Below are positions 2,715-53,912 of a DNA stretch of 64,000 nt, one piece after another (position 1 is the stretch's first letter; every line of letters starts with the position of its first letter). Location of the stretch: positions 139,525 through 203,524 of the forward strand of contig CAJFKR010000001.1 of NCBI GenBank assembly GCA_904386005.1. The letters run 5' to 3'. The DNA is from Candidatus Flemingiibacterium merdigallinarum (GTDB taxonomy: Bacteria; Bacillota; Clostridia; Oscillospirales; CAG-272). A program made the translations under genes and the position numbers. Below the pieces are notes generated by a model, which saw nothing but the letters and a program-made list of their open reading frames with translations, made no database searches and was not told the origin of the DNA.

Positions 2715-5456
2715 TCACTCCTCGCTGCCGCCGCTTACATTCGACTCGGCCATAATATCGACGAGCGCGTGTACCATTGACGCGGTTTCGGCGCGGGTCG
2801 CCGGCTCGCTCGGGCAGAGCTGTCCGTCGCGGCTCGGGTAGATGTCGTTCATCAAAAGCCAGCAGACCGGCTCGTATGCCCAGTCGGAGACGTCGTCGGC
2901 GTCTTCGTAGTCGAGACGGAACATCCACAGTCCGTCAAAGCCGCCGTCGTGGTATTGCAGATAGCGGTAGAGTATCGCCGCGAGCTGCTCGCGTGTGACC
3001 TCGTTGTTCGGACCGAAGGTGACCTCGTCGTAGCCATTGACGATTCCCTCTGCCGACGCCCAGCGAACCGCCTCGCTGTACCACTCGTCCTCGGGCACAT
3101 CGTCAAACTGCATCAGGTAGTTGACGACCGGACAGCCCTCGGCGCGCCAGAGTATAGTCACCGCCATCGCGCGGCTCAAGGTCAGGTCGGGCGCGAACAA
3201 TCCGCCAGGCAGACCGTCCATCAGCCCGTTTTCGGTCACAAATTTGACGTCGTCATAATACGGGCTTTCCTCGTCGATATCCGAATAAGGATTCTCCCAC
3301 GGCAGCGGCGCGAACACGGCTTCAATCGTATGGTCTTCGCGCACCCGTTCGAGGGTGAAGCTGCCATCGGCGCCGACCTCGTCGATTCGGCTTTCGCTGT
3401 CAACTATGATATCAGCGAGCATATAGCCGTCGTCAGGCGTCAGGGTGTAGCCGACGCTGCCGTCATAGCGCACCTCAGTTGTGCCGGCAGGCGAAATCGT
3501 GCCGCCGTCGGTCGCGGACGCGGTGACGTCGAAGGTTTGATTCAATATCGGAAGCAGCCAGATGAAGTCGTCGTCGGAATCGTCGGGTTCGGGTTCGTCA
3601 GGCTCTTGATCTATCGGCGTGTATAGTGCGGTCACATCGACCGGATATTCAGGCATTATGAATACGATTTCGGGCTTGTATTTGTCGGCTTCGGTGAGAT
3701 ATCCGTCGGCAATCAGCTGCTCGAGCCCCTGCCATTGGCTGAATTCTTTGTCGTCGTATTCCTCGGCGGTCAACCGAACCGCGGTGCCCTCATAATGTTC
3801 GGTAACGATTCCATCTACAGTCACCGAAAACGGAGTTTCGTCTGTGACGTCAGACAATACTACCTTGCCTTGGTCTATACGCAGTACGTATGTGTCGCTC
3901 ATATAGCGCAATGCCGCAAGATCCTGCGCGGTTATTGTGTATCCGTTATAGCCGGTCGCCAGCAGCAGATTATCACATTCAAGCCATGTATAGAAGTTGA
4001 GCGCTGCGCCGGAGGTGAGTCCGGCGATTTCTATATTTGAATAGCCGTAATTGTGGTTTCCGTCCGGATAAAGACCGCCGTCGGTCTCCTTGTCGGAGGT
4101 ATTGCCGGTTACGATCGGATTTCCACTTATGATGATATTGCCAAACGGCGAGCAATAAATTCCTCCGGCGTGAATGACCGCGTTATTGTCGGCTACACTT
4201 CCGCCGTGCAGCTCGAGCGTGCCGTCGATGTTGACAAAGATTCCGCCGCCGACTTTGATTGCCTTATTATTTGAGATTGTTCCGGACTCGAGTGTGAAAA
4301 ACGAGTCGGAGTTATCCACATACACGCCGCCGCCATACGTCGTCGCGGTGTTGTCTGAAATTTCTCCGCCAGACATAACGACGCTACCGCTGACTATGTA
4401 GACACCGCCGCCCAGCTGCGCGGTGTTGTTCGAGATTTGCGCGCCTTCCTGAATATACAGCTTGCCGTCGATCAGGCAGACTCCGCCGGACGCGCCGTTT
4501 TTGGTCGTGTTGTTGTTATTGCGCACGACCGCGCCGTCGCCGAGCGTGAGGCTGCCGCCGTTTATCGCGATGAGTCCTCTCGACGCGGTCAGTCCCTGCT
4601 CGCTGCCGCCGTCGACAATTACATTATTCAGCTCCACAGCATCGGAAATCTGAAGCAGATAGCCGTGCTTATCCTTTGTCGTGGATATTGATTTTGCCGC
4701 GCCGTCACTGGTTATAGTCAGACTTTTTTCAAGCGAGACAGTCGATGTGAGCTCGACGTCATTGATAAGATATATTGTGCCGCCGTCATACGAGTTTTCC
4801 ACAGCCTCGGCGAACGAGCCGGGCTGCCAGCTCTGTCCGGGCGCGGTCTGATATCTGGCGTCGGCTTCCTCAATAATGCTGAAGCTGAAGGTCAGCTGAC
4901 CTTTGTATTTTGCGGTATTCTTGGGCGCGATTGTGACTTCATATGTGCCGACCTCAACCGGCAAGGACGGGAGAATTTCGCCGGTGTCTTTTTTATAGGT
5001 TATATCATAATCGCCGTTGAAGTCCGAGCCGTCGGTGAGCTTTCCGCTGAGATTGATATATCCCGGATGCGGGTTGCCGTCGTACAGCACATTCTGCGGC
5101 TCGGCGGTGATGTTGACTATGTACTGTCCGGTGAGGCGTACATTGATATTGCATATGATAGTATCGCCGGTAGTGGTCGTCAGCTCGACGACAAGCGTCG
5201 TTGACACCGGCTCCTCAAAGGCTCGGGTGCTGAATTTCATATATCCATTCTGTTGCAATATCGGAACGGTGTAACCGGAGACTATACTGCTGTCATAAGA
5301 GAGCAGTTCGCCTGACGAAAGCTCTGTTTCCTTGGGCAGATATTCGAGAAAGTTGATTCTGAACTGCTGCTCGGTGTCGACCGGAGCTGACACATTGATA
5401 TCGACAGTCTGCGTGTCCGCGCTCAACGCAAATGTCAGGCAGACTGACAGCAGCAT
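2715..5456 (-). CDS. Large cell-surface protein: Ig/MBG-like N-terminal region, parallel beta-helix with GGGVY/GGGIF repeats, two Listeria-Bacteroides-type repeats, three C-terminal SLH domains
   Basis: 913-aa ORF. SLH motifs are present, e.g. FDDVPEDEWYSEAVRWASAEGIVNGY and ASMVHALVDIM-type ends. The annotated Met lies inside a signal-peptide h-region. The real ATG with its RBS is at 5488 in another frame (see finding). Confidence 0.8.
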   Translation of the reverse strand: MLLSVCLTFALSADTQTVDINVSAPVDTEQQFRINFLEYLPKETELSSGELLSYDSSIVSGYTVPILQQNGYMKFSTRAFEEPVSTTLVVELTTTTGDTIICNINVRLTGQYIVNITAEPQNVLYDGNPHPGYINLSGKLTDGSDFNGDYDITYKKDTGEILPSLPVEVGTYEVTIAPKNTAKYKGQLTFSFSIIEEADARYQTAPGQSWQPGSFAEAVENSYDGGTIYLINDVELTSTVSLEKSLTITSDGAAKSISTTKDKHGYLLQISDAVELNNVIVDGGSEQGLTASRGLIAINGGSLTLGDGAVVRNNNNTTKNGASGGVCLIDGKLYIQEGAQISNNTAQLGGGVYIVSGSVVMSGGEISDNTATTYGGGVYVDNSDSFFTLESGTISNNKAIKVGGGIFVNIDGTLELHGGSVADNNAVIHAGGIYCSPFGNIIISGNPIVTGNTSDKETDGGLYPDGNHNYGYSNIEIAGLTSGAALNFYTWLECDNLLLATGYNGYTITAQDLAALRYMSDTYVLRIDQGKVVLSDVTDETPFSVTVDGIVTEHYEGTAVRLTAEEYDDKEFSQWQGLEQLIADGYLTEADKYKPEIVFIMPEYPVDVTALYTPIDQEPDEPEPDDSDDDFIWLLPILNQTFDVTASATDGGTISPAGTTEVRYDGSVGYTLTPDDGYMLADIIVDSESRIDEVGADGSFTLERVREDHTIEAVFAPLPWENPYSDIDEESPYYDDVKFVTENGLMDGLPGGLFAPDLTLSRAMAVTILWRAEGCPVVNYLMQFDDVPEDEWYSEAVRWASAEGIVNGYDEVTFGPNNEVTREQLAAILYRYLQYHDGGFDGLWMFRLDYEDADDVSDWAYEPVCWLLMNDIYPSRDGQLCPSEPATRAETASMVHALVDIMAESNVSGGSEE

Positions 5457-5896: not shown

Positions 5897-7213
5897 TCAG
5901 ATCTTGTTGCCGCCTGAACGGTCGTATCCGCCGCTGATCTGCGGATAGTAGGTGCCGCGGTACCACTCGGGCGGGGACGCGAAGGTCATTTTGATTATCG
6001 TCACGCCGAGCGGGTCGGGCGCGGTTTTCGGCAGATTCTTCATTAATATGCGCTGACCCTTGTATTCGAAATCGATCGGCGTGCCGTCAATGAGAGTCAC
6101 GCTCTCGGGCGCGCTCATGTAGCCGCCGAAGCCCATCTCGCCGTAGGACGGCCAGATCCAGTTCCAGAGGTAGACTATCTTTCCGTCCGCGCTCTGCGTC
6201 GTCGCGCAGACGCCGTTGCCGCCGGCGCGCATGAAGCCCTTCGGACGGCGCACCGGATATACCGCCTCGCCGTTGCGCTCGAGCCACTTGCCGACCTCAT
6301 TCAGCGGCTTTACCGCGTCGCTCGGCACGCTGCCGTCCGGAGCCGGTCCGATGTTGAGTAACAGGTTTCCGCCGCCTGCCGACGCGGTGTTCAGCATCTT
6401 CAAGATGCGCGGCGCGGTGTAGACATAGGGCGTCGCCTGCGCGGCGTCGACATAGCCCCACGAGATGTCGTTGAAGGTCATGCAGGCCTCCCAGTCGTTC
6501 GCCTCAGCGGTGACGTGACCCTCTGGCGTGCCGATGTCCTCAGGCAGGCGCGAGCGGTTGTTGATGATGATATCCGGCTGAAGCTCGCGCAGACGCTGAT
6601 TGCGTTCGAGCGAATCCCAGCCCTCCCAGTTTTCCATAGGGCAGGGTACGTCGTACCAGAGTATGTCGATCTTGCCGTAGTTTGTCAGCAGTTCGACGTT
6701 CAGTGCCTCGATGTAGTCGAGGAAGCGGCGGCGCGCGGCGGTGTCATACGCGCACTTGTAGCCGTCCTCGTGGTGCCAGTCCATAAGCGAGCTGTAGAAG
6801 CCGATGCCAAGCCCGAACTCGCGGCAGGCGCCGACGAACTCGGCGACGATGTCGCGTCCGCAGGCGTTGAACGAGTTGTACGGGTTGACCTTGCTGTTCC
6901 AGAGCGAGAAGCCCTCGTGATGACGCGTCGTCAGCACCATGTACTTCATTCCCGCGGCCTTCGCCTCGGCCGCCCACTCGCGGCAGATGCCCTCGCGCGG
7001 TCTGAACGTGTCGGCGAGACGCGCGTATTCGTCGCGCGGAATGTTCTCGTGCAGCTGCACCCACTCGTTGCGTCCGAGCTGGGAATAGAGTCCGTAGTGG
7101 ATGAACATTCCGAACCGCGCCTCGCGCCACCAAGCCATGCGGCGGTCACGCGTAGCAGCGCACTGCTGCTCGTATTCTGCCTTTGATACTATCTGTGCCA
7201 TTTGTGATATCAT
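5897..7213 (-). CDS. alpha-L-fucosidase, glycoside hydrolase family 29
   Basis: AWWREARFGMFIHYGLYS and TTRHHEGFSLW motifs, at typical GH29 length. The start could instead be the Met at 7201, which has better RBS spacing. Confidence 0.9.
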   Translation of the reverse strand: MISQMAQIVSKAEYEQQCAATRDRRMAWWREARFGMFIHYGLYSQLGRNEWVQLHENIPRDEYARLADTFRPREGICREWAAEAKAAGMKYMVLTTRHHEGFSLWNSKVNPYNSFNACGRDIVAEFVGACREFGLGIGFYSSLMDWHHEDGYKCAYDTAARRRFLDYIEALNVELLTNYGKIDILWYDVPCPMENWEGWDSLERNQRLRELQPDIIINNRSRLPEDIGTPEGHVTAEANDWEACMTFNDISWGYVDAAQATPYVYTAPRILKMLNTASAGGGNLLLNIGPAPDGSVPSDAVKPLNEVGKWLERNGEAVYPVRRPKGFMRAGGNGVCATTQSADGKIVYLWNWIWPSYGEMGFGGYMSAPESVTLIDGTPIDFEYKGQRILMKNLPKTAPDPLGVTIIKMTFASPPEWYRGTYYPQISGGYDRSGGNKI

Positions 7214-7420
7214 CCTTTCCGATTATAATCCCGGAATATCCCGGAGTTGGTTTCAGTATACCACAGGCGGCAGGGGTTGTCAATGTAATTTACATTATTA
7301 AATTAGGTAAAAAACATTACTAAAATACATAAAAGCGGCTGTACAGTCGACCGACATTGTGCCGCCGGCGGTACAGCCGCTATGGAGGATTATATCAAAA
7401 TTTTTAGATTTGTGTTCGGA

Positions 7421-8206
7421 TTATGAATAGAAATCGTGATTGCCGATAGTCGTCACATACGAGCGGTTTTCGGTGATCCACGAGCTTGTCGCGATCGCGG
7501 GGTTCAGAAAGTAGAGCGCTTCACGTGAGAGCGTATAGCCGTCGAGCACGATTTTCGCGGCGATGACGCTCTCGGCGGTCGGCGTGTTGTAGATAGTGCC
7601 GTTTGCGGTCGGCGTAAACTGGACGCCGAATTTGCTGTCGAAGATGACGCCGTAGATCGTGTTCGGGAAATCGTCGTGCCGGACGCGGTTCAGAACCACG
7701 TTGCCGACCAGAATCTTTCCGGTCATCGGCTCGCCCGACGACTCGGCGTTTATGATGCGCGAGAGCCAGTAGACCTCGTCGTCGCGGTAGTAGCTGTCGC
7801 CCGACTCAAATTCGTAGCCGCTCTCTGTCGTCAGTCCGACCGAGCGGGTCGCGTCGTCCCAGGTCACAGCCGCGCCGTAAACCTCGGCAATCGAGCGTAT
7901 CGGGATGAACAGCGCGCCGTCAATTATCAGATTCTCCGCGCCGCCGAGATATCGGCCGCTGACCGTTATGTAATTCTCGCCCGCGGTCACACTGATCTCA
8001 TGTGAGCTTCCGGTCACAGCTGAAAACAGCGAGCTCGCGCTCTCGTAACTCACGTATGTAGTCTGTCCGATCAGCCGCGCGTCCATGTCGACCGGGGTAT
8101 TGTTAATTGTGGTATGTACCGGTTCGACCGCGCTTGTGCTGAAAGCGAGAATTGAGGCTGTCAGGGCGGCGGATATCAGCCCTATGAGTTTTTTTGGTAT
8201 TTGCAT
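7421..8206 (-). CDS. SleB/CwlJ-type cell-wall hydrolase with N-terminal copper-amine-oxidase-like stalk domain
   Basis: Signal peptide MQIPKKLIGLISAALTASILAFSTSA. Hydrolase_2-like core YWLSRIINAESSGEPMTGKILVGNVVLNRV. The start was moved to ATG 8206. Confidence 0.8.
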   Translation of the reverse strand: MQIPKKLIGLISAALTASILAFSTSAVEPVHTTINNTPVDMDARLIGQTTYVSYESASSLFSAVTGSSHEISVTAGENYITVSGRYLGGAENLIIDGALFIPIRSIAEVYGAAVTWDDATRSVGLTTESGYEFESGDSYYRDDEVYWLSRIINAESSGEPMTGKILVGNVVLNRVRHDDFPNTIYGVIFDSKFGVQFTPTANGTIYNTPTAESVIAAKIVLDGYTLSREALYFLNPAIATSSWITENRSYVTTIGNHDFYS

Positions 8207-8480
8207 ATTGCATACCGTCCTTCTTTTGGTATTGTAAGATATGCGAGCTCGTCCGTATTCGGGACAAGTCGCAACGAAAAGGCATACGGACAAAGGTCAT
8301 CCGTATGCCTCTATTATACCATATTTGCCGAGTAATATCAACGCACAATATCTGCCAGCGGTCGGACGTGCCGTCGGCGGTCAGCGGGAACTGCGCCGGA
8401 CATAATGCACGGTCAGCCGGTGGACAGCGTAAACCGCACCGGACATATGCACAGTCAGCCGCCGGTATCCTGCGCGTGAA

Positions 8481-12529: not shown

Positions 12530-12560
12530 AATTTAATCATAATCGAAAGGAGCAATTACC

Positions 12561-13457
12561 ATGAAACACAAACTGCGCAAACTTCTCGCGATGATCATGA
12601 CGCTGTGCATGATTATCCCCACACTCGCTACCGGAGCGGCTGCAACCGACACGACTACCGCTCCATTTACCGATATCGCCGGTCACTGGGCGGAGGACAC
12701 AATCACCCGCTGGGCTGATGTAGGTATTGTCAACGGATATCCGGACGGGACATTCAGACCGGATGAATTTATCACACGAGCCGAGCTTGCGAAGATTGTG
12801 ACGCTCGCGTTCGGGCTCGAAACCGAATCTGACGCTCCGCTCGCTGACTGCGACCCTGACGCGTGGTATTATGAATACGTTAGAACCGCAGCTGACTACA
12901 TACCGAAATATCCATACATAGTTGGCTACGAGTCGGTGCTCATTTATCATAATAACACTTCGACTGGAAATTTTCTGCCGGATGAGCCGGTGCTGCGCTA
13001 TCATGCAGCCGACGCGTTTGCGACGCTCGCACTCGAGTATGGCGGCATGACGCTTGAGATTCCCGAGGATGAATACGAGGTTCACGCGGCGATATCGGAA
13101 GTTTTCTTGGACGAGTCGATACAGAGCTTTCCGACTTACTACCACCTGTTCCGGCCGAGCAATCCCACCGACCCGAATCTGATCCGTTTGCAGAATTCAA
13201 TTTATGCGGTCTACAAGCTGGGACTGATGACCGGTACGCCGACCGATGGCGGGTTTTATTTCTTCCCATTTATTGGTCTGTCCCGCGCGGAGGTGCTGAC
13301 TATACTTGACCGTATTCTCACGCCGGAGGAAGTAAGCGAGAATATGAACGGCACCGAAACAGCGGAGGAGAGCGAGCCGGTAGAGACTGAACCAGTAGAG
13401 ACAGAACCGGTAGAGACCGAGCCTGTCGAAACCGAGTTGCCAATTTTGATATTCTAA
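12561..13457 (+). CDS. Secreted SLH-domain protein, paralog A, with EPVET x4 C-terminal repeat
   Basis: Signal peptide MKHKLRKLLAMIMTLCMIIPTLATGAAA. SLH motif FTDIAGHWAEDTITRWADVGIVNGYPDGTFRPDEFITRAELAKIV. AAAGGAG RBS. Confidence 0.75.
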   Translation: MKHKLRKLLAMIMTLCMIIPTLATGAAATDTTTAPFTDIAGHWAEDTITRWADVGIVNGYPDGTFRPDEFITRAELAKIVTLAFGLETESDAPLADCDPDAWYYEYVRTAADYIPKYPYIVGYESVLIYHNNTSTGNFLPDEPVLRYHAADAFATLALEYGGMTLEIPEDEYEVHAAISEVFLDESIQSFPTYYHLFRPSNPTDPNLIRLQNSIYAVYKLGLMTGTPTDGGFYFFPFIGLSRAEVLTILDRILTPEEVSENMNGTETAEESEPVETEPVETEPVETEPVETELPILIF

Positions 13458-13477
13458 TTTCGAAAGGAGCAATTACC

Positions 13478-15058
13478 ATGAAACACAAACTGCGCAAACT
13501 ACTCGCGATGATCATGACGCTGTGCATGATTATCCCCACACTCGTGACCGGAGCGGCTGCTGACGACGCGCCGTTCTCTGATATCGCCGGACACTGGGCA
13601 GAGGACACAATCACCCGCTGGGCTGATGTAGGCATTGTCAACGGTTATCCGGACGGGACGTTCAGACCGGATGAATTCATCACCCGCGCGGAACTTGCGA
13701 AGATTGTGACGCTGGCGTTCGGGCTGACTGAAAAGACTGTGACCGAACTCAATGGAATCGACCCGGACGAATGGTATTACAACTATGTCTTGACTGCGGC
13801 GGATTTTATAACTTTGCAACCGATGTCTTTTCTACCGGAAGAGCTACATTTTTATCGTGTAAATCGAAGCGGCGCCAATGAGTTCTTTCCGAATGAACCT
13901 GCGCTGCGCTATCAGGCTGCCGAAGCTTTTGTACAGCTGAAAATATACGCTGACGGCGGTCTGACAAAAGAGATGCCGGAAACTGAAAATACTCAAACTC
14001 TTACGATTCCACAAAGCGATATCACTGTTGAAGTTCCCAGCGCATTTGAAATATTTTTGGAATTAAGGGAAACATTCAATGATTCCGAAATCGGACCACA
14101 AATAATGATGCTCGGTCCGGGCAGATGGGATACAAACCAGATGCGGAATGTTACATTCATGTGGCTCGCTTATGAACTTGGTATCATGCAAGGCGAAATA
14201 GAAGCGGATGGCAGATATTTTCATCCCAACGATTCGCTGACCCGCGCAGAGGTGTTGACCATACTCGACCGCATTCTCACGCCTGAACAGGCGGCTGCTA
14301 ACATGGCTGCTGCCGAAGCTGCGCTTGATGTGCCTGCGCCCGAGCCTGAGCCCGAACCGGTAGAGCTGCCTATACCCGACGGAACCGTTCCGGAGTCAAT
14401 CGACCTTGCCGACCCGAAATACAACATCACGCTGACCCGTGCGCAGTTCGCCGAGCTGCTCACAGTCGCGTTCGACCTTGACGGCGAAACCTCGCTTGCG
14501 CTCACCGACGTTGACCCGAACAGCGAATATTACAGTTACATCAAGGCGGCGGCTGATTATATCCCGAAATTCACCGGATATGAAATGCGCACCGAGGTTG
14601 ACGCGTATTATCAGGCGCAAAACCAATCTCGATACGACGATTTCCTGCCGGACGAGACTATTCTGCGTATGCACGCGTCGCAGTCGTTTACAGATATATA
14701 TGAGCTTCTGTACGGTGTTGAGTTCCCGATTCCGGATGATGCTTATGAGACAGCAGGTGTGATTTCGGCTTATTATGCAGACCCTTCCATAACATCAGTG
14801 GGAGGATTTCTGAATCCTATGATGCGCCCGGGATTTATTGCTGGTAATGTACTGCAATTCCAAAACGCAATCTACACTGGACATGTTCTCGGCATAATGA
14901 ACGATCGAATCGGCACTGACGGGCTGACCTACTTCCTGCCGTACGACGCGCTGACGCTGTCCGACGCGCTCTATTCGATTTTCAAGCTGCTGCCCTCTGA
15001 CGACGCGGAGGTGTTCGCGTCCGAGCTTGATAGCCTGTCGTTCATGCAGGCTGAATAA
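13478..15058 (+). CDS. Secreted SLH-domain protein, paralog B (two copies of the module found in paralog A)
   Basis: The RBS, signal peptide and first SLH motif are near-identical to those of 12561..13457. A second module begins near ITLTRAQFAELLTVAFDL. Confidence 0.75.
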   Translation: MKHKLRKLLAMIMTLCMIIPTLVTGAAADDAPFSDIAGHWAEDTITRWADVGIVNGYPDGTFRPDEFITRAELAKIVTLAFGLTEKTVTELNGIDPDEWYYNYVLTAADFITLQPMSFLPEELHFYRVNRSGANEFFPNEPALRYQAAEAFVQLKIYADGGLTKEMPETENTQTLTIPQSDITVEVPSAFEIFLELRETFNDSEIGPQIMMLGPGRWDTNQMRNVTFMWLAYELGIMQGEIEADGRYFHPNDSLTRAEVLTILDRILTPEQAAANMAAAEAALDVPAPEPEPEPVELPIPDGTVPESIDLADPKYNITLTRAQFAELLTVAFDLDGETSLALTDVDPNSEYYSYIKAAADYIPKFTGYEMRTEVDAYYQAQNQSRYDDFLPDETILRMHASQSFTDIYELLYGVEFPIPDDAYETAGVISAYYADPSITSVGGFLNPMMRPGFIAGNVLQFQNAIYTGHVLGIMNDRIGTDGLTYFLPYDALTLSDALYSIFKLLPSDDAEVFASELDSLSFMQAE

Positions 15059-19396: not shown

Positions 19397-19640
19397 TTTC
19401 GCACCAAACTTTTTCATAACAGAACGATCGGCGGTATGACGCCGGTCATTCTTTTTTTCGGGATTATTTGTCGAAAGCATTGATTTTTAATCGCTTTTAT
19501 AATATAATTATAAAACAGATACGCGATAAAGTAAATGGACAAATCGACTATGTTAGCATAAATCAATCATGTCCGGAACGCCCCGAATATTTGCGTGTCA
19601 TATATCCACTGCGGTAAAATGCGCTTTCTGTTTGGACAAT

Positions 19641-19734
19641 TTCTAAAAATACATAAAAATCCGTGGGAAAAGCAAATCGATGACCGTCGTATCGATTTAT
19701 CTTTTCATTAAAATCGTATTTTTAGATTTTACCT
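19641..19734. repeat. 94-nt nested-palindrome element, copy A
   Basis: Roughly 85% identical by eye to 48857..48950. Nested inverted repeats tctaaaaatac/gtatttttaga, gggaaaag/cttttc and aaatcgat/atcgattt. Confidence 0.8.
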
Positions 19735-19818
19735 TTGATATTTTGTGTGAGCTGGGATATAATCAAGCGGTATAAAATTAAGGGAGCTTTCGCTTAACCG
19801 AAAGAATTGGATAAAATA

Positions 19819-20691
19819 ATGAACATTACAAACAGCACCCCTGAAATAATCAGCGACTCGAAATATTTCGAGCCTAATACGGTTCGAATAACAATATGCG
19901 GAAGCCAGCACCACGGCAAGGTCTGGCAGCATTCACACGCTTTCTATGAATTTGTCTATGTCGAGCAGGGCTTCTCGCTGCACTCGTATAATGGCAAGAC
20001 TTCGGTGCTGTGCGGCGGCGACCTGTTCGCGATATTCCCGGGCGACGTACACTCCTACAACAGCGCGTATCACACGCATATCTACAACTGTCTGTTCTAT
20101 CTCGAGGAGCTCGGCGACCTGCGGTCTGAGGTGCTGAAGCTTCCCGGCATCGACTGGGAGCGCAGGCGTGCCGCCTCGCCGCTGCCGATAATCCGCGTCG
20201 GGTTGTCCGAGCGTCGGGAGCTGGTCGAGCTGCTCGAGCATATGCGCCGCGAGCGCGAAAACAAGGCGGTCGGCTGGGAACTGAATCTGAAAGGACTGCT
20301 TATAAATTTCCTGACTATGTATTCGCGCCTGATCAGCTCGCTGCCCGATCACGAATGCAGGCAGGACGAGCGCGGTTACTGCGGGTATATCTATGCCGTA
20401 CTGAAATTTGTCGAGGAAAATTATACACATGACATCACGGGCGCGGATATCGCCGAGTTTGTCGGTTTATCGCAGGACTACCTATCGCGTCAGTTCAAGG
20501 CCGCGATGGCGATGACTCCGGTCGAGTACGTGCGCAAATTCCGCGTCGCGAAATCGATTGACTTACTGAAAACCACCGATATGTCGATTGCGAATATCGC
20601 CGACGCCTGCGGCTTCGGCGACATCAGCCTATACTCGCGCGTTTTCAAGCAGATAATCGGCGTCTCGCCCGCGGCCTTCAGAAAGGAATGA
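19819..20691 (+). CDS. AraC-family transcriptional regulator
   Basis: Cupin-like N-terminus plus HTH (IANIADACGFGDISLYSRVFKQIIGVSPAAFRKE). The start could be TTG 19807 or ATG 19819. Confidence 0.85.
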   Translation: MNITNSTPEIISDSKYFEPNTVRITICGSQHHGKVWQHSHAFYEFVYVEQGFSLHSYNGKTSVLCGGDLFAIFPGDVHSYNSAYHTHIYNCLFYLEELGDLRSEVLKLPGIDWERRRAASPLPIIRVGLSERRELVELLEHMRRERENKAVGWELNLKGLLINFLTMYSRLISSLPDHECRQDERGYCGYIYAVLKFVEENYTHDITGADIAEFVGLSQDYLSRQFKAAMAMTPVEYVRKFRVAKSIDLLKTTDMSIANIADACGFGDISLYSRVFKQIIGVSPAAFRKE

Positions 20692-20760: not shown

Positions 20761-20798
20761 CTGGGGGAGGTGCCTTTTGAAAAAGGCACCTCCCCCAG
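20761..20798. other. Perfect 18-bp-arm inverted repeat (terminator-like hairpin without a U-tail)
   Basis: ctgggggaggtgcctttt/aaaaggcacctcccccag. No T-run on either side. Confidence 0.5.
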
Positions 20799-20879: not shown

Positions 20880-21080
20880 TAGAACAACAGAGATGCGCCG
20901 CCTAATGGGACCCTGCTTCCCAACCGGCGGCTTGGTTTCTACGTGGCTGTTTGAAATCGACTTCAGCTTCGCTGATCGCCGCTCCTCGCTCCTGAATTCT
21001 CCTCTATTCTCGCTAATCCTCGCTCCTGAATTCTCCTCTATTCCCGCTAATCCTCGCTCCTGAATCCTCATCCATTCCTG
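20880..21080 (-). repeat. GA-rich (on minus strand) intergenic repeat block: 34-bp tandem repeat x2.8 plus a hairpin module related to those at 28288 and 53688
   Basis: 34-nt units at 20987..21020, 21021..21054 and 21055..21080. The segment cagcgaagctgaagtcga (minus strand) is shared with 28299..28318. Confidence 0.6.
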
Positions 21081-28287: not shown

Positions 28288-28549
28288 AGTGGTCTCGACT
28301 TCAGCGAAGCTGAAGTCGAGAGAGTGGAGAGTGGAGAGTGGTCTCAAACCGCCGCAGGCGGTTTGAGAGCTGTGGTAGGAAATCGCCGGAGGCGATTTCC
28401 GGAATTGATTATAAGAGAGGAGAGATGAGAGTGGGGAACGGACTCACCGCGGATGGTTTCGAGAGAACGGGCTCCCAAAGGGTGGTTTCGAGAGAGCGGA
28501 CTCACCGCGTGTGGTTTCGAGAGAGTGGACTTCCCACGGGTGTCGGAGC
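28288..28549 (+). repeat. GA-rich modular hairpin array (three long GNRA-like-looped hairpins plus 29-nt tandem units x3.5)
   Basis: Hairpins at 28293..28321, 28342..28368 and 28378..28400. 29-nt units start at 28438, 28467, 28496 and 28525. The 28318..28400 core recurs at 53783..53862. Confidence 0.7.
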
Positions 28550-37193: not shown

Positions 37194-37268
37194 GTTTGTT
37201 TGCCTCCTGTTATTTTGTGATTACAGTATACCACAAAATAAAGTCGGACTGAACAACACAAATTATAA

Positions 37269-37344
37269 TTTGTGTTGACACAAATCATGATTTGTGTTGA
37301 CACAAACGGCGATATGTGTTGACACAAACGGCGATATGTGTTGA
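37269..37344. promoter_or_regulatory. Array of 3.5 near-palindromic 16-bp boxes (TTTGTGTTGACACAAA) phased every 22 bp; putative TetR operator array
   Basis: Boxes at 37269..37284, 37291..37306, 37313..37328, and a partial one at 37337..37344. They lie 76-150 nt upstream of ATG 37193. Confidence 0.6.
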
Positions 37345-37426: not shown

Positions 37427-38962
37427 TTACTGCCCGAACTTGAGCTTCGCGAGACCTCCCTCGGCGGTCTCCTTGTATTGGCGCGAAATGTCGAGTCCGG
37501 TCTCCTTCATCACGTGTATGACCTTGTCGAGCGAAATTTTGCGCGAGTCGACGAGGAAGCTCGCGAGGCTGACCGCGTTTATCGCGCGCATTGCCGCGAC
37601 CGCGTTGCGCTCGATGCAGGGGATCTGCACAAGCCCGCATATCGGGTCGCAGGTCAGACCTAAGTGGTGCTCGATGGCGATTTCGGCGGCGTATTCAATC
37701 TTGTCGAGGTCGAGTCCGAACAGCTCGGCGAGCGACGCCGCGGCCATCGCGCAGGCTGAGCCGATCTCCGCCTGACAGCCGCACTCGCTGCCCGATATCG
37801 ACGCGTTCGTCTTGATGAGGTTGCCGACGACACCGCCCGCCGCGAGCGCGCGCAGTATCTCCATATCGGTATAGTCGCGCTTCTTCTGCTGATAGTATAA
37901 AACCGCCGGCAAAACTCCCGACGAGCCGCAGGTCGGCGCGGTGACTATCGTCTCGGCGCAGGCGTTCTGCTCGCTGACCGCGAACGCGTAAGCGCAGACC
38001 ATGCGGTTCTCGCGCGTCTCGGCACTCTCGTCTATATGCTCGCGGCATAAAAGCTGCTTTGCCTTTTTCTGCACGCCGAGTCCGCCCGGGAGTATGCCCT
38101 CGTCGGCGAGTCCGCGCTCAATGCTCGCTTTCATGCCGCGCCAGATTTCGGAGAGGTAGTCCCAGATGCCGCTGCCCTCGGCGCGCTCGACATACTGCCA
38201 GAGCCGCAGATTGTTCGCGCGGCACTCCTTCGCTATCTTCTCGAACGACGATACCGGATAGACGTCGGGCGGCTCGGGCAGCAGGTATTTGTCGTTCTCG
38301 AATCTTCCTCCGCCGGTGCTGACAACGCGGATGCGGTCAATCTGTGCGCCTTGTCTGAACGCGATCATGTCCATTGTGTTCGGGTGCGGCAGGTCAAGCT
38401 CGGTCGTGTTGAAAATGATATCGCAGCTGACCGGCGCCAATGTGGCTTTGATTACCCGGTCGGTGCCGTGACCGATTCCGGTCTTGGCGAGCGAGCCGTA
38501 GAGTATCACCTTGAAACGGTCGGCGGTCGGGTTCTTCTCGCGGAACATACGCGACGCGCGTTCGGGCGCTATAGTGTGCGAGCTCGAGGGTCCGCGCCCG
38601 ACGAGGTATAGCTCGGTCAGCGATTTCATACCGGTGGGAGAGGGCTCATCTCTGATTTCAGATTGCAGCTCGCTGCCGAAAAAGTAATCGACCGGAACAT
38701 TGAAGATTTTCGCGAGCTTATACACATTCTCGGTTGACGGCAGCGCGAGTCCGGTCTCCCATTTCGAGACGGCGCGGTTGCTGACGCCGAGCCGCTCGCC
38801 GAGCTCTCGCTGTGTGATGCCGCTGCGTCTGCGCAGCGCGGCGAAGGTCTTAGCAAAGGCTGTGTCTTTAGCAAAGGCTGTGTCTTTAGCAAAGGCTGTG
38901 TCTTTAGCAAAGGTTTCGCCTTTAGCAAAGGCTTTGCCTTTGGCAAATTCGTTTTCGTTCAT
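37427..38962 (-). CDS. XRE-type HTH domain fused to single-chain iron-sulfur L-serine dehydratase (beta + alpha domains)
   Basis: HTH ITQRELGERLGVSNRAVSKWETG. Dehydratase motifs GRGPSSSHT and APTCGSSGVLPAVL. N-terminal FAK-type hexapeptide repeats. Confidence 0.85.
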   Translation of the reverse strand: MNENEFAKGKAFAKGETFAKDTAFAKDTAFAKDTAFAKTFAALRRRSGITQRELGERLGVSNRAVSKWETGLALPSTENVYKLAKIFNVPVDYFFGSELQSEIRDEPSPTGMKSLTELYLVGRGPSSSHTIAPERASRMFREKNPTADRFKVILYGSLAKTGIGHGTDRVIKATLAPVSCDIIFNTTELDLPHPNTMDMIAFRQGAQIDRIRVVSTGGGRFENDKYLLPEPPDVYPVSSFEKIAKECRANNLRLWQYVERAEGSGIWDYLSEIWRGMKASIERGLADEGILPGGLGVQKKAKQLLCREHIDESAETRENRMVCAYAFAVSEQNACAETIVTAPTCGSSGVLPAVLYYQQKKRDYTDMEILRALAAGGVVGNLIKTNASISGSECGCQAEIGSACAMAAASLAELFGLDLDKIEYAAEIAIEHHLGLTCDPICGLVQIPCIERNAVAAMRAINAVSLASFLVDSRKISLDKVIHVMKETGLDISRQYKETAEGGLAKLKFGQ

Positions 38963-39003
38963 TGTATGGTTTCCGGCAGCTGCCGGCAGTTTCTCCTTAT
39001 ATA

Positions 39004-45624: not shown

Positions 45625-46821
45625 TCAGTAATACCAACTCGAGTCAAGTTCGTCGAGCGTGCCGAACGAATAACCCTCGTCCTGCAAGAACTCGATAATC
45701 CAACCGAGCATATCGGCGGTTTCGGTGTAGGATTCGTGCAGCAGTATAATCAGAGGAGAGTTTTTCAGCGACGAGCCGTATTTGAAGGTGTCAGTAAAAT
45801 TTTTCTTGAGCCATTCGTCGGCGGTCATATTGGCAGGACATTTTTTCAGCATACTGTCGTAGTTCGCGCAGTTCCAGTCGTAGCCCTTGTAGCCGAGCTC
45901 GGATAGCTTGCCTTTCAGGTCGAGCGCGCTCTTTTTAGTCGAGCCTCCGGGGAACCGGAACAGCTTTTCGTCCGGTACCTCGCCGAGCGCGTTGTTTATC
46001 GCCGACTCCCATTCGGAGATTTCGGCTTCAAGCCCGCCCTCCTTTTGTATGCGCGCGTAGTCGTGGTCGTAGGAATGGCAGCCGATTGCATGTCCGCGCT
46101 CGTAGCAGTCGGCGACCAGCTGCGGGTAGGAGTCTACGAGGTAGCCGACGGTGAAGAAGGTCGCTTTGACGCCGTATTCGTCAAGCGTGTCGAGGATTGT
46201 CGCGATGTTCTTTTTGTTCGGTCCGTCGTCAAAGGTCAGGTATGCGACCTTGCCGCTCGAAGGCTTCGCGGCGGCAGTATCGGCTGCCGTCGATGTACCT
46301 GCGGCAGTATCGGCTGCCGTCGACGTATCTGCGGTGGTATCGGCTGCCGTCGATGTACCTGCGGTGGTATCGGCTGCGGGTGACGTATCTGCGGTCGTCT
46401 CGGCTGTAGTTGATATGTCAGCCGTTTTTGGCTCGGCGGCGTCCGATTCGGCAGTATCGTCGGGCTCTTCCGGCTTGGCTGTGACCGGCGCGGCGGTTTC
46501 GGATTCGAGCGATTCGGTATTGTCGCTGCTTACTTCAATTTCAGTGGTTTCGGGGAGCGGCGTGTATATCGAGTCGTCTGACGCTGTCTCGGCACAGACC
46601 TCGGTTTCGGTCGGAATGTGCGCGGATGACGTTTCGGTCGTATCACGGCGATATGGCACAACGGTGCGCCGTGTCAGATATGCGTCCTCGGCGCTGACCC
46701 GTGACGCGAAATTCGCACAGGATACTGCCAATACAGTGAATATTGCAAGTATTGCAACCGTAAGTATACGCGATATACGTAAAGCTGTGTATGGTTTGTG
46801 ATTTGCGGCTCTGTGTTTCAT
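45625..46821 (-). CDS. Membrane-anchored polysaccharide deacetylase (NodB homology domain) with long Thr/Ala/Asp-rich repeat linker
   Basis: NodB motifs YLTFDDGP and HSYDH. N-terminal TM segment ILTVAILAIFTVLAV. Confidence 0.85.
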   Translation of the reverse strand: MKHRAANHKPYTALRISRILTVAILAIFTVLAVSCANFASRVSAEDAYLTRRTVVPYRRDTTETSSAHIPTETEVCAETASDDSIYTPLPETTEIEVSSDNTESLESETAAPVTAKPEEPDDTAESDAAEPKTADISTTAETTADTSPAADTTAGTSTAADTTADTSTAADTAAGTSTAADTAAAKPSSGKVAYLTFDDGPNKKNIATILDTLDEYGVKATFFTVGYLVDSYPQLVADCYERGHAIGCHSYDHDYARIQKEGGLEAEISEWESAINNALGEVPDEKLFRFPGGSTKKSALDLKGKLSELGYKGYDWNCANYDSMLKKCPANMTADEWLKKNFTDTFKYGSSLKNSPLIILLHESYTETADMLGWIIEFLQDEGYSFGTLDELDSSWYY

Positions 46822-47062: not shown

Positions 47063-48829
47063 TTATTTATACAGCGGACCGTATGCGGCGCAGGCACGGT
47101 AGTCTGCGTCCTCGAGGTTGGTCGTGCCGAATGCCGACCATGCGTGCGGACGGTAGACCTTGTCTGCCGGAATATTGTGCATCGATACCGGTATGCGCAG
47201 CATCGAAGCGAGAGTAAGGATATCCGCGCCGATGTGTCCGTAAGCGAACGCGCCGTGGTTTGCGCCCCAGTTAGCCATTACGCTGTAGACATCGGTGAAC
47301 GCGCCCTCTCCGGTGAGCGTCGGTGCGAACCAGATCGAAGGCCAGGTCGGGTCGGTGCGGTCGAGCAATGTATGGGTTACCTTGTCGGGCAGCTCAACGG
47401 TGTAGCCCTCGGCGACCTGGATTACCGGTCCTAATTTGTCGACGAGGTTGACGCGAACCATCGTAACCGGCATTTCGCCCTTCGATATGTACTGGCTCGA
47501 GAATCCGCCGCCGCGGAAGTAGCCCTTGTTCGCCGGAGCCCACTTCGTGTTGGCGAGCATAGCCTCGATGTCGGCGTCGGTGACGTTCCACCATTCCTTC
47601 ATGACCGAGTTGCCGTTTTCGTCCTTAGCCGCGCCGTTGCCGTCGAGTGCCGACGCGCCAGAGTTGATAAGGTGCATGAAGCCGCCCGATGCCTTGCCGG
47701 TGACCTCAAAGCCGGCGACGCGCTTGACCGCGTCGGGGCTCCAGTAGGTGCGCACGTCGGAGAATACCGCCGGACGGTTCGAGACGAGGTTCAGAAGCAG
47801 CATAGCGAGACCGTTGAGGTTGTCATTCTCGGTAGCGAGAATGAACGGCGGGCGCTTGCCGTTCCAGTCGAACGTCGTGTTGAGTATAGCCTCGGTGAAG
47901 TCAGCGTTCGGCATATAGTCGGTCCACTGGCGCTGACCCTGGAAGCCGCCAAAGATAGCGTTGCGGCCGTTCGACTCCTCGATGTAGCCCATTTCGGCGA
48001 GCTTCGGGTTTCCGAGCATAATGTCGCGGACGATGAGCGTCATCTTCGCGATAAACTCCCACTCCTTCTCGTCCTGCTCGGCGTTGTTCTGCCATTCGGG
48101 CGGATTGACCTCGAGACCCTTCGGGCAGTTCTTCTTGATCCACGCGAGTTCCTTCTCGTATTCGTCGTGATCGTAGATGCCGAGGTCTACGCGGCGGAGA
48201 ATCTCAACCATGTCGACCCACTCGGCGCGAATTCCGAGATACTTCTGCATGAAGTCGGGATCTGCGAACGAGCCGGCGATACCCATTGCGACCGCGCCGA
48301 GTCCGCAGTATGCCTTGCCGCGCATGAGTCCGACCGCGATAGCGCAGCGCGCGAAGCGGAGGATTTTTTCAGCGACGTCGGCGGGAATCGTCGTGTCGCC
48401 CATGTCCTGAACGTCGTGACCGTAGATCGCGAACGCGGGAAGTCCGCGCTGTGCGTGCGCGGCCATGACGGCGGCGAGGTAGACCGCGCCGGGGCGCTCG
48501 GTGCCGTTGAAGCCCCAGACCGCCTTAGTCGTCAGCGGGTCGAGGTCCATAGTCTCGCTGCCGTAGCACCAGCAGGGAGTTACCGACAGGGTCGCGCAGA
48601 CGTTCAGCTTTGAGAATTTCTCGGCGCAGAGAGCGGCTTCCTTGCCGCCGCCGATAGTGGTGTCGGCGATGACGCACTCGACGTGCGTTCCGTCCGGATA
48701 GAAGAGCGTCGACTCGATTAACTCCTTTGCGGCGCGAGCCATGTTCATCGTCTGATCCTCAAGGCTCTCGCGGATTCCGCGGCGGCGTCCGTCGATTATC
48801 GGGCGGATGCCGATTACCGGTTTGTTCAT
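47063..48829 (-). CDS. fucI: L-fucose isomerase
   Basis: 588 aa. N-terminus [24 protein letters not shown] and overall colinearity with FucI. Confidence 0.92.
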
Positions 48830-48856
48830 AATAATATCCCCTTTTCTTTAGGTTAC

Positions 48857-48950
48857 TTCTAAAAATACATAAAAATTCGTGGGAAAAGTAAATCGATGCC
48901 TATGGTATCGATTTATCTTTTCCTTCAGATCGTATTTTTAGAGGTTACCT
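48857..48950. repeat. 94-nt nested-palindrome element, copy B (immediately 5' of the fucI RBS)
   Basis: Roughly 85% identical by eye to 19641..19734. The palindrome arms extend to about 48850..48951. Confidence 0.8.
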
Positions 48951-49264
48951 GTATAGTTTTTGGCAGCGGGCGGATTGCTGGGCTGTAAGCGGATATGTAT
49001 TAGCCCGCGACCTTATTGATTTAAGTATACATATTAAATATACCATACCGCGCGCCATTTTGCAATAGATTTTTTATTATTTTATATGAATTTTCCGGTA
49101 AAGGGAGAAAAATGACTTCGGGCGATAAATCCGGTCGTTGTTATGTAAATTGCCGCAATTGTATTGACAGCGGTAGAAAATTATGCTACAATGTAGATAC
49201 CGAAAGAATAATTCGGAAACGCGGGAAAAGCTATGTTCATGATCAATGAAAGCGAGGGGATGAA

Positions 49265-53687: not shown

Positions 53688-53912
53688 TGAGGAGTTAGGA
53701 GTTAGGAGTGAGGAGTTTCGGTAGAAATTCGCCGAAGGCGAATTTCTGAAACAGAGTGGACTCAAATTCGCGAAGCGAATCCGAGAGAGTGGAGAGTGTG
53801 TGGTCTCAAACCGCCGAAGGCGGTTTGAGAGCTGTGGAAGCAATTCGCCGGCGGCGAATTGCAATTGTTGGAAATTAGAATCCGGCGGATTTGGAAATGA
53901 GTGGTCTCACCA
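53688..53912 (+). repeat. GA-rich modular hairpin array between GRE-3 and AE-3
   Basis: AGGAG x4 run at 53689..53715. Hairpins at 53723..53747, 53761..53787, 53804..53830, 53840..53862 and 53879..53891. The core is shared with 28318..28400. Confidence 0.7.

Follow-up and report, generated by a model that had tools for sequence, protein, structure and literature searches.

Two copies of a long palindromic sequence are present in the window (by which the whole stretch of DNA analysed, 64 kb in length, is meant), one of them close to a gene of an AraC-family regulator and the other close to the L-fucose isomerase gene fucI. The question raised by this locus is whether such an arrangement reflects a cis-regulatory element which links both genes, or a mobile palindrome of the MITE type which was inserted at both places. 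The two possibilities were put forward in the initial annotation, in which colinear copies with approximately 85% identity were placed at 19641-19734 (copy A) and 48857-48950 (copy B). These coordinates were confirmed, and an identity of 84.7% was measured in the global alignment of the complete units.

Structure of the element

The three nested inverted repeats described previously are present in both copies, and folding agrees with the hairpin predicted from them, as copy A and copy B each fold as a single long nested hairpin. The element itself is real, but its dimensions had to be corrected: alignment of all copies gives a unit of 98 nt in place of 94 nt, and the palindrome reaches beyond the 94 nt first noted, with inverted terminal arms of 17-19 nt and not 11 nt. 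The terminal inverted repeats (17-18 nt, consensus GGTWACYTCTAAAAATAC) surround a core formed by the nested palindrome; in copy B the arms comprise 19 nt and are 89% complementary (inverted-repeat pair I21). According to MAFFT alignment and repeat finding (repeat family D6), copies A and B are 83% identical across 109 nt, and the differences between them are concentrated in the apical loop and at a small number of stem or bulge positions, much as had been estimated by eye. Among the four copies known at present (A, B, and the copies C1 and C2 from another contig) pairwise identity amounts to 83-94% over 98 nt, the non-palindromic positions included. Coordinates of the features are collected in Table 1.

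Table 1. Features of the repeated element and of its surroundings (positions are those of the window)
Feature	Position	Strand	Remarks
Probable MITE, copy A	19635..19732	+	98 nt, most decayed copy
Probable MITE, copy B	48851..48948	+	98 nt, near-perfect hairpin
Left terminal inverted repeat, copy B	48850..48868	+	AGGTTACTTCTAAAAATAC; pair I21
Right terminal inverted repeat, copy B	48932..48950	+	GTATTTTTAGAGGTTACCT; pair I21
Left direct repeat, copy A	19630..19634	.	GTTTG
Right direct repeat, copy A	19733..19737	.	CTTTG; 4/5 match to left
Left direct repeat, copy B	48846..48850	.	CTTTA
Right direct repeat, copy B	48949..48953	.	CTGTA; 4/5 match to left
Direct repeats, copy C1			TGTCA left, CTTTA right; 2/5, degenerate
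Direct repeats, copy C2			CTTAT left, CTTAT right; 5/5, perfect
Sigma-70-type promoter TTGATA-17-TATAAT	19735..19763	+	11/12 matches; of the AraC/RhaS-like gene, directly downstream of copy A
AraC-family regulator gene, closest to RhaS	19819..20691	+	downstream of copy A
Likely fucI promoter TTGCAA-17-TATATT, TG extension	49037..49065	-	kept in the strain without the element
L-fucose isomerase gene fucI	47063..48829	-	NF008220, 1005 bits

No third copy was found in the window by pattern search, nhmmer or fuzzy matching, while copies A and B were recovered by nhmmer with E-values of 1.9e-31 and 3.6e-34, respectively. For the outer arm (TCTAAAAATAC/GTATTTTTAGA) the 64-kb window contains four occurrences and no more, versus 0.61 expected by chance, and these four are the two arms of copy A and the two arms of copy B; in each of the four copies of the element the TCTAAAAATAC arms are exact. 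The folding z-scores of the 94-nt versions were -3.0 for copy A and -7.6 for copy B, and full-length copy B reached -45.7 kcal/mol with a z-score of -11.4. With open reading frames of at least 50 aa listed, the unit of 98 nt is too short to encode a transposase. The termini of copy A are decayed (GACAAT.../...TTTTAC in place of GGTTAC) and its identity to the other copies is the lowest (83-85%), which suggests that it is probably the oldest one; copies B and C2, being 94% identical and forming near-perfect hairpins, are by the same kind of sequence comparison probably the youngest.

Copies and their distribution

Four loci of the element are known, all of them in one uncultured Oscillospiraceae species-level clade, and this count rests on approximately 0.1 Mb of sequence from the species. 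In a scan for pairs of termini spaced 50-78 nt, in which each of 185,579 species was represented by one genome, 16 loci were obtained, and the true relative among them was a single contig, CALXDF010000203.1, derived from an uncultured Oscillospiraceae MAG. The other 15 were rejected as chance matches coming from unrelated phyla and having unrelated interiors. Copies C1 and C2 are situated on that contig approximately 1 kb apart, mutually inverted, on both sides of a TetR/DhaS-like gene. When metagenomes were scanned with a 23-base internal pattern, one sample was positive, with one orthologous locus for each of A, B, C1 and C2 and no others. Viral contigs searched with a degenerate 18-mer of the terminus gave seven chance matches and lacked the element, and blastn of copy B against plasmid and phage collections returned just chance matches of 26-30 nt. 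In about 0.3 Mb of sequence examined there was neither an autonomous element or transposase with matching ends nor any further match to the termini; the terminus spacing used in the scan of the genome collection excludes a full-length IS from detection.

The segment of about 1 kb bracketed by C1 and C2 (L017/L032, 491-1668) holds only the TetR/DhaS-like regulator gene and its promoter, and the layout C1-TetR-C2 resembles a composite arrangement. A fragment of an IS3-like transposase was also seen on CALXDF010000203.1, at 4639-5382.

One more intergenic sequence of the window, 7305-7415, was considered as a fifth copy and rejected, as it has a GC-rich terminator core, is devoid of flanking repeats and is negative in nhmmer. 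Common to it and to the arms of the element are TTAGGTAA, a stretch of 16 nt (CTAAAATACATAAAAG) and a TTTTTAGATTT block. Its core is the GC-rich intrinsic terminator (minus strand) of a cell-wall hydrolase gene (7421-8293), and it is located just upstream of a TTGACA-17-TATACT promoter of an alpha-L-fucosidase gene (5897-7213). The likeness could be a matter of chance, a relic, or a clue to the origin of the arms.

Genomic context of the copies

Copy A follows the terminator (19426-19447) of a CBM_6 gene and precedes the AraC-family gene. The start of this gene at 19819 and the TATAAT box in front of it were both recognised correctly in the initial annotation; the box turned out to be a part of a complete promoter, the -35 hexamer of which begins 3 nt past copy A, and the last 3 nt of the right 5-bp repeat serve at the same time as the beginning of the -35 box. 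Since copy A is placed upstream of this promoter, it stays outside the AraC mRNA which starts there. Copy B is found between divergent genes, its neighbours being fucI, the identity of which was confirmed, and a lipoprotein-like gene of 323 aa. As the likely fucI promoter is upstream of copy B, the copy would belong to the fucI leader (5' UTR), in orientation antisense to fucI, and together with its 5-bp repeat it stops 8 nt short of the fucI Shine-Dalgarno sequence. Copy C1 is preceded by a TTGATA-18-TATAAT promoter and followed by the RBS of a gene encoding an 880-aa PMR1/SERCA-like (Ca-type) P-type ATPase, and copy C2 lies in the leader of a gene for a 336-aa protein which had no match in Pfam or NCBIfam; both are sense to their genes.

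The flanked genes (AraC regulator, fucI, P-type ATPase, 336-aa protein) are functionally unrelated. The position in relation to the promoter varies as well, with A upstream of it and B, C1 and C2 inside 5' UTRs. Three of the four copies end within approximately 40 nt of a start codon, a proximity which random intergenic placement would give about 1% of the time according to a rough estimate. A target preference would explain it, and selection for an effect in cis is possible too.

This location of B, C1 and C2, inside 5' UTRs and near the RBS, is what might be expected of a shared cis-regulatory element, be it a leader RNA resembling a riboswitch or an attenuator, or a long palindromic operator recognised by one regulator, through which the AraC gene, fucI and the other flanked genes would be co-regulated. 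The equal orientation of C1 and C2 relative to their genes is also in line with such a function, and so is the richness of the window in fucose and glycan genes. The same set of contexts speaks against it on several points, however: copy A precedes the AraC promoter and is absent from the mRNA, copy B is antisense to fucI, and neither a common function of the flanked genes nor a constant position and orientation can be seen. Moreover, the identity of 83-94% extends across spacer positions and 5-bp repeats flank the copies, which points to copying and not to convergent binding sites, and in the genome and metagenome scans the element was not found beyond one species-level clade.

Flanking direct repeats and empty sites

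The element is flanked by direct repeats of 5 bp, the pentamers of which are T-rich (CTKTA, CTTAT, STTTG). In the AT-rich parts of the window a match of at least 4/5 at the same spacing is expected by chance at 2.2% of sites, and by our own calculation the probability that three of four sites would reach at least 4/5 by chance is approximately 4e-5.

Evidence of insertion was provided by the fucI locus. In two contigs (L024 and L025, P0001) fucI is 97% identical to that of the window and the gene order (319-aa gene, fucI, polysaccharide deacetylase, methyltransferase) is common to them and the window, but the fucI leader is devoid of the element. The leader reads CCCCTTTT-CTGTA-TAGTTTT in these contigs (the junction sequence is also given as TTTTCTGTATAG, with a single CTGTA) and CCCCTTTT-CTTTA-(98 nt)-CTGTA-TAGTTTT in the window, so the filled and empty sites form a base-exact pair in which the pentamer is present once when the site is empty and twice around the element. 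A second empty site was found in a relative with a TetR neighbour 89% identical (L028), in which C1 is absent between the -10 box of the ATPase gene and the RBS; both flanks can be aligned, and L028 is too diverged for the junction to be resolved to the base. The samples with the empty B site also have contigs in which C1 and C2 are filled (L033, L036); if these contigs come from the same strain, the insertion state varies by locus within the clade. For copy A no empty site was found among the relatives of the AraC gene P0122, P0121 and P0128: the contigs of the first two (AraC genes 83% and 99% identical) begin 59 and 36 nt upstream of the AraC gene, respectively, and in the third (95%) the site is filled. 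Two contigs, L022 (fucI 93% identical) and L023 (87%), were tried as outgroups for the fucI site and rejected because their gene neighbourhoods differ.

It is the empty sites by which the idea of a cis-regulatory link is largely refuted, the element being missing both beside a 97%-identical fucI and in the ATPase leader of a relative. Taken with the varying position and orientation, with the ATPase and the 336-aa gene standing behind the other copies, and with the Rfam result given below, they make a regulatory element common to the AraC gene and fucI, as proposed alongside the mobile palindrome in the initial annotation, improbable.

A different mode of mobility has to be weighed at this point, namely that the palindrome is of the REP/REPIN type or derived from IS200/IS605, and was mobilised in single-stranded hairpin form, with a Y1 transposase (RAYT/TnpA) at work instead of a DDE enzyme. 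One hairpin of about 100 nt has the size typical of REPINs, and in copy B the sense strand exceeds the antisense strand in stability by 10 kcal/mol (due to G-U/G-T pairs), which could reflect a strand-specific single-stranded form. In copy A, however, it is the minus strand that is more stable, so the asymmetry is inconsistent between the two. Elements mobilised by Y1 enzymes make no target-site duplications, whereas three of the four copies have 5-bp repeats at their sides and the pentamer is present once in the empty site. The GTAG and CGTC end tags, described for REP elements (PMC3733652), are absent and the ends read GGTWAC instead; beside the junction in the empty fucI site there is no guide tetranucleotide of the TTAC type, and the copy number is far below that of a REPIN population. 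Such transposition is consequently regarded as very improbable. The IS200/IS605-type mechanism had been considered because of the TTAC contained in GGTTAC, and was rejected on the empty site without TTAC and on the presence of duplications.

In a more distant relative (L029, ENA ERZ21549450, TetR 71% identical), a different nested palindrome of about 75 nt is found within 4655-4765. It occupies the C1 position, past the -10 box of the orthologous P-type ATPase gene and ahead of its RBS. It reads CACTGA...AAAAGCCTGT-TAATTC-ACAGCTTTT...TCAGTG, and a stretch of 111 nt around it folds with -26 kcal/mol and a z-score of -3.5. No similarity between this palindrome and the element was detected, and no flanking duplication is obvious; a separate insertion event or a hairpin native to the leader may account for it.

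Analysis at the RNA level

A match to a described ncRNA family had been foreseen as a possible outcome, but Rfam 15 at the gathering score yielded tRNA in the window and nothing at the element. In the E-value mode the sub-threshold matches were generic hairpin models, the best of them plant miRNA hairpins with 26.6 bits against a gathering score of 100. RNAalifold, applied to six distinct sequences of little divergence, gave 31 pairs, most of them invariant. One genuine compensatory change was noticed (A-U to G-C in C2, by which the inner stem is kept), and this pair can be counted in favour of a conserved RNA structure; it is set against 8 broken cells and an unfavourable covariation term of +1.22. 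On the sense strand of B and of C2, the inner hairpin with the CUUUUCCUUC that follows fits a loosely defined terminator consensus, a match to the consensus only, and this is also a feature which an attenuator would have.

The core of the element is laid out as an A-tract, a hairpin and a T-tract, and its 16-nt arm stretch recurs at a true terminator (7321-7336). It could accordingly be supposed that the copies are duplicated bidirectional intrinsic terminators, or static hairpins, which were spread by recombination and not by transposition. Terminators are expected at 3' ends, but all four copies are placed 5' of genes or between divergent promoters and never at 3' ends, and the real terminator of the gene which precedes copy A is situated approximately 185 nt upstream of it. 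The 5-bp duplications and the exact empty site would be left unexplained, and this origin is considered extremely improbable.

An integron attC site was also taken into account and rejected, because the ends AGGTAAC/GTTACCT do not fit RYYYAAC (R'')/GTTRRRY (R'), no cassette array is present, and the element is 5' of genes.

The element as a probable MITE

On account of the terminal inverted repeats, the 5-bp duplications, the non-coding unit of 98 nt without a transposase reading frame, the dispersed copies with unrelated flanks and the two orthologous empty sites, the element is very probably a low-copy, lineage-restricted MITE, a non-coding relic of a DNA transposon. These are the features by which MITEs are defined in the summary of Delihas 2011 (PMC3184786). 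A plain MITE had been expected to show many copies at random intergenic sites; the contexts are indeed unrelated, but just four loci are known, which is a low number for a MITE family.

Mobilisation of such an element is proposed to rely on a transposase provided in trans by an insertion sequence; this enzyme would bind the terminal repeats and cut with a 5-bp stagger at T-rich pentamers. Pentamers of this kind are frequent between promoters and RBSs, which would explain why three of the four copies are near start codons. Copies B, C1 and C2 would then be co-transcribed in 5' UTRs as hairpins of -29 to -45 kcal/mol on the sense strand, and a transcribed hairpin may locally alter mRNA stability, translation initiation or read-through. 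Local effects on the expression of fucI, the ATPase gene and the 336-aa gene are in this way possible as predicted from folding, and they would arise as a by-product of insertion, not as a shared regulatory function.

It is rather unlikely, although it deserves a mention, that the MITE has been domesticated as a portable 5'-UTR module which prefers T-rich pentamers between promoter and RBS, and the transcribed hairpin of which (with its A-tract/hairpin/U-tract core) would be an attenuator, a site for RNase III or a stabiliser at the 5' end. If it were so, presence or absence of the module at the strain level would rewire the expression of fucose utilisation and cation transport.

The recognition of a MITE removes the tempting inference of a regulatory RNA or operator common to the AraC gene and fucI. 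A previously unlisted, lineage-restricted MITE of an uncultured gut Oscillospiraceae species is thereby described with insertion junctions at the base level, and the polymorphic fucI insertion, 8 nt from the ribosome-binding site, constitutes a natural pair with and without the element for the effects of a leader hairpin. Otherwise the element would be ordinary selfish DNA.

Comparison with known elements

The Correia and RUP elements duplicate a TA dinucleotide upon insertion. Members of the Tn3 family produce a 5-bp target-site duplication and prefer AT-rich targets; their ends have approximately 38 bp and start with GGGG, and the miniature elements of this family (TIMEs) comprise about 200-260 bp. 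The element presented here may resemble TIMEs in the 5-bp duplication and the AT-rich target preference, but its ends are of 17-18 bp and start with GGTWAC, and the unit is smaller. It differs from Correia and RUP elements in the duplication of 5 bp at T-rich pentamers.

With bacterial MITEs in general (Correia/NEMIS of Neisseria, RUP of Streptococcus pneumoniae, ERIC/IRU of enterobacteria; PMC3184786) the element shares small size, lack of coding capacity and terminal inverted repeats around a core, as well as target-site duplications, intergenic location near promoters or RBSs, a transcribed stem-loop and insertion polymorphism among close relatives. In the collections searched here no sequence similarity to the described families was found. 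There are four copies here versus tens to hundreds, there is no known partner insertion sequence, and the host is an uncultured Oscillospiraceae species. REPINs (REP doublets associated with RAYT) are likewise imperfect palindromes of about 100 nt which form one long hairpin, and are extragenic and non-coding. Unlike them, the element has target-site duplications and AT-rich terminal repeats of 17-18 nt, carries no GTAG/CGTC tag and is present in very low copy number; no RAYT gene was found in the sequence examined.

Other repeats in the window

Several further repeats were observed in the window. Arrays of short GC-rich hairpins with loops of 3-4 nt (GAAG, GCAG, GGAG) and GAGAGTGG-like spacers are present at 28288-28548 and 53700-53910, both directly downstream of genes, the latter after a gene of a PFL-like glycyl-radical enzyme. 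A two-hairpin block of 61 nt is common to both (28338-28398 and 53800-53860, 90% identity), and the first array also contains tandem units of 29 nt (28436-28542). No Rfam match was obtained for either array, and judging by their sequence they look like a REP/BIME-like repeat family of this genome. At 37254-37343, within an intergenic region, four palindrome units of 22 nt (CAACACAAATNATNATTTGTGTTG) are lined up head to tail, the last two of them degenerate; their layout is reminiscent of an operator array with several sites for a dimeric repressor.

Downstream of the AraC gene (20761-20798) there is a perfect, terminator-like palindrome with arms of 18 nt (CTGGGGGAGGTGCCTTTT/AAAAGGCACCTCCCCCAG), and three tandem repeats of 34 nt (TCGCYRMTCCTCGCTCCTGAATTCTCCTCTATTC) are found at 20976-21077, upstream of a BlaI/BlaR1-like gene pair. 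The remaining repeats are a tandem duplication of 12543-13020 and 13460-13931 (period approximately 910 nt; three blocks with 81-94% identity), tandem repeats of 30 nt within the polysaccharide deacetylase gene (46241-46420) and tandem repeats of 18 nt (TTAGCAAAGGCTGTGTCT) at 38832-38965; all three are probably coding repeats.
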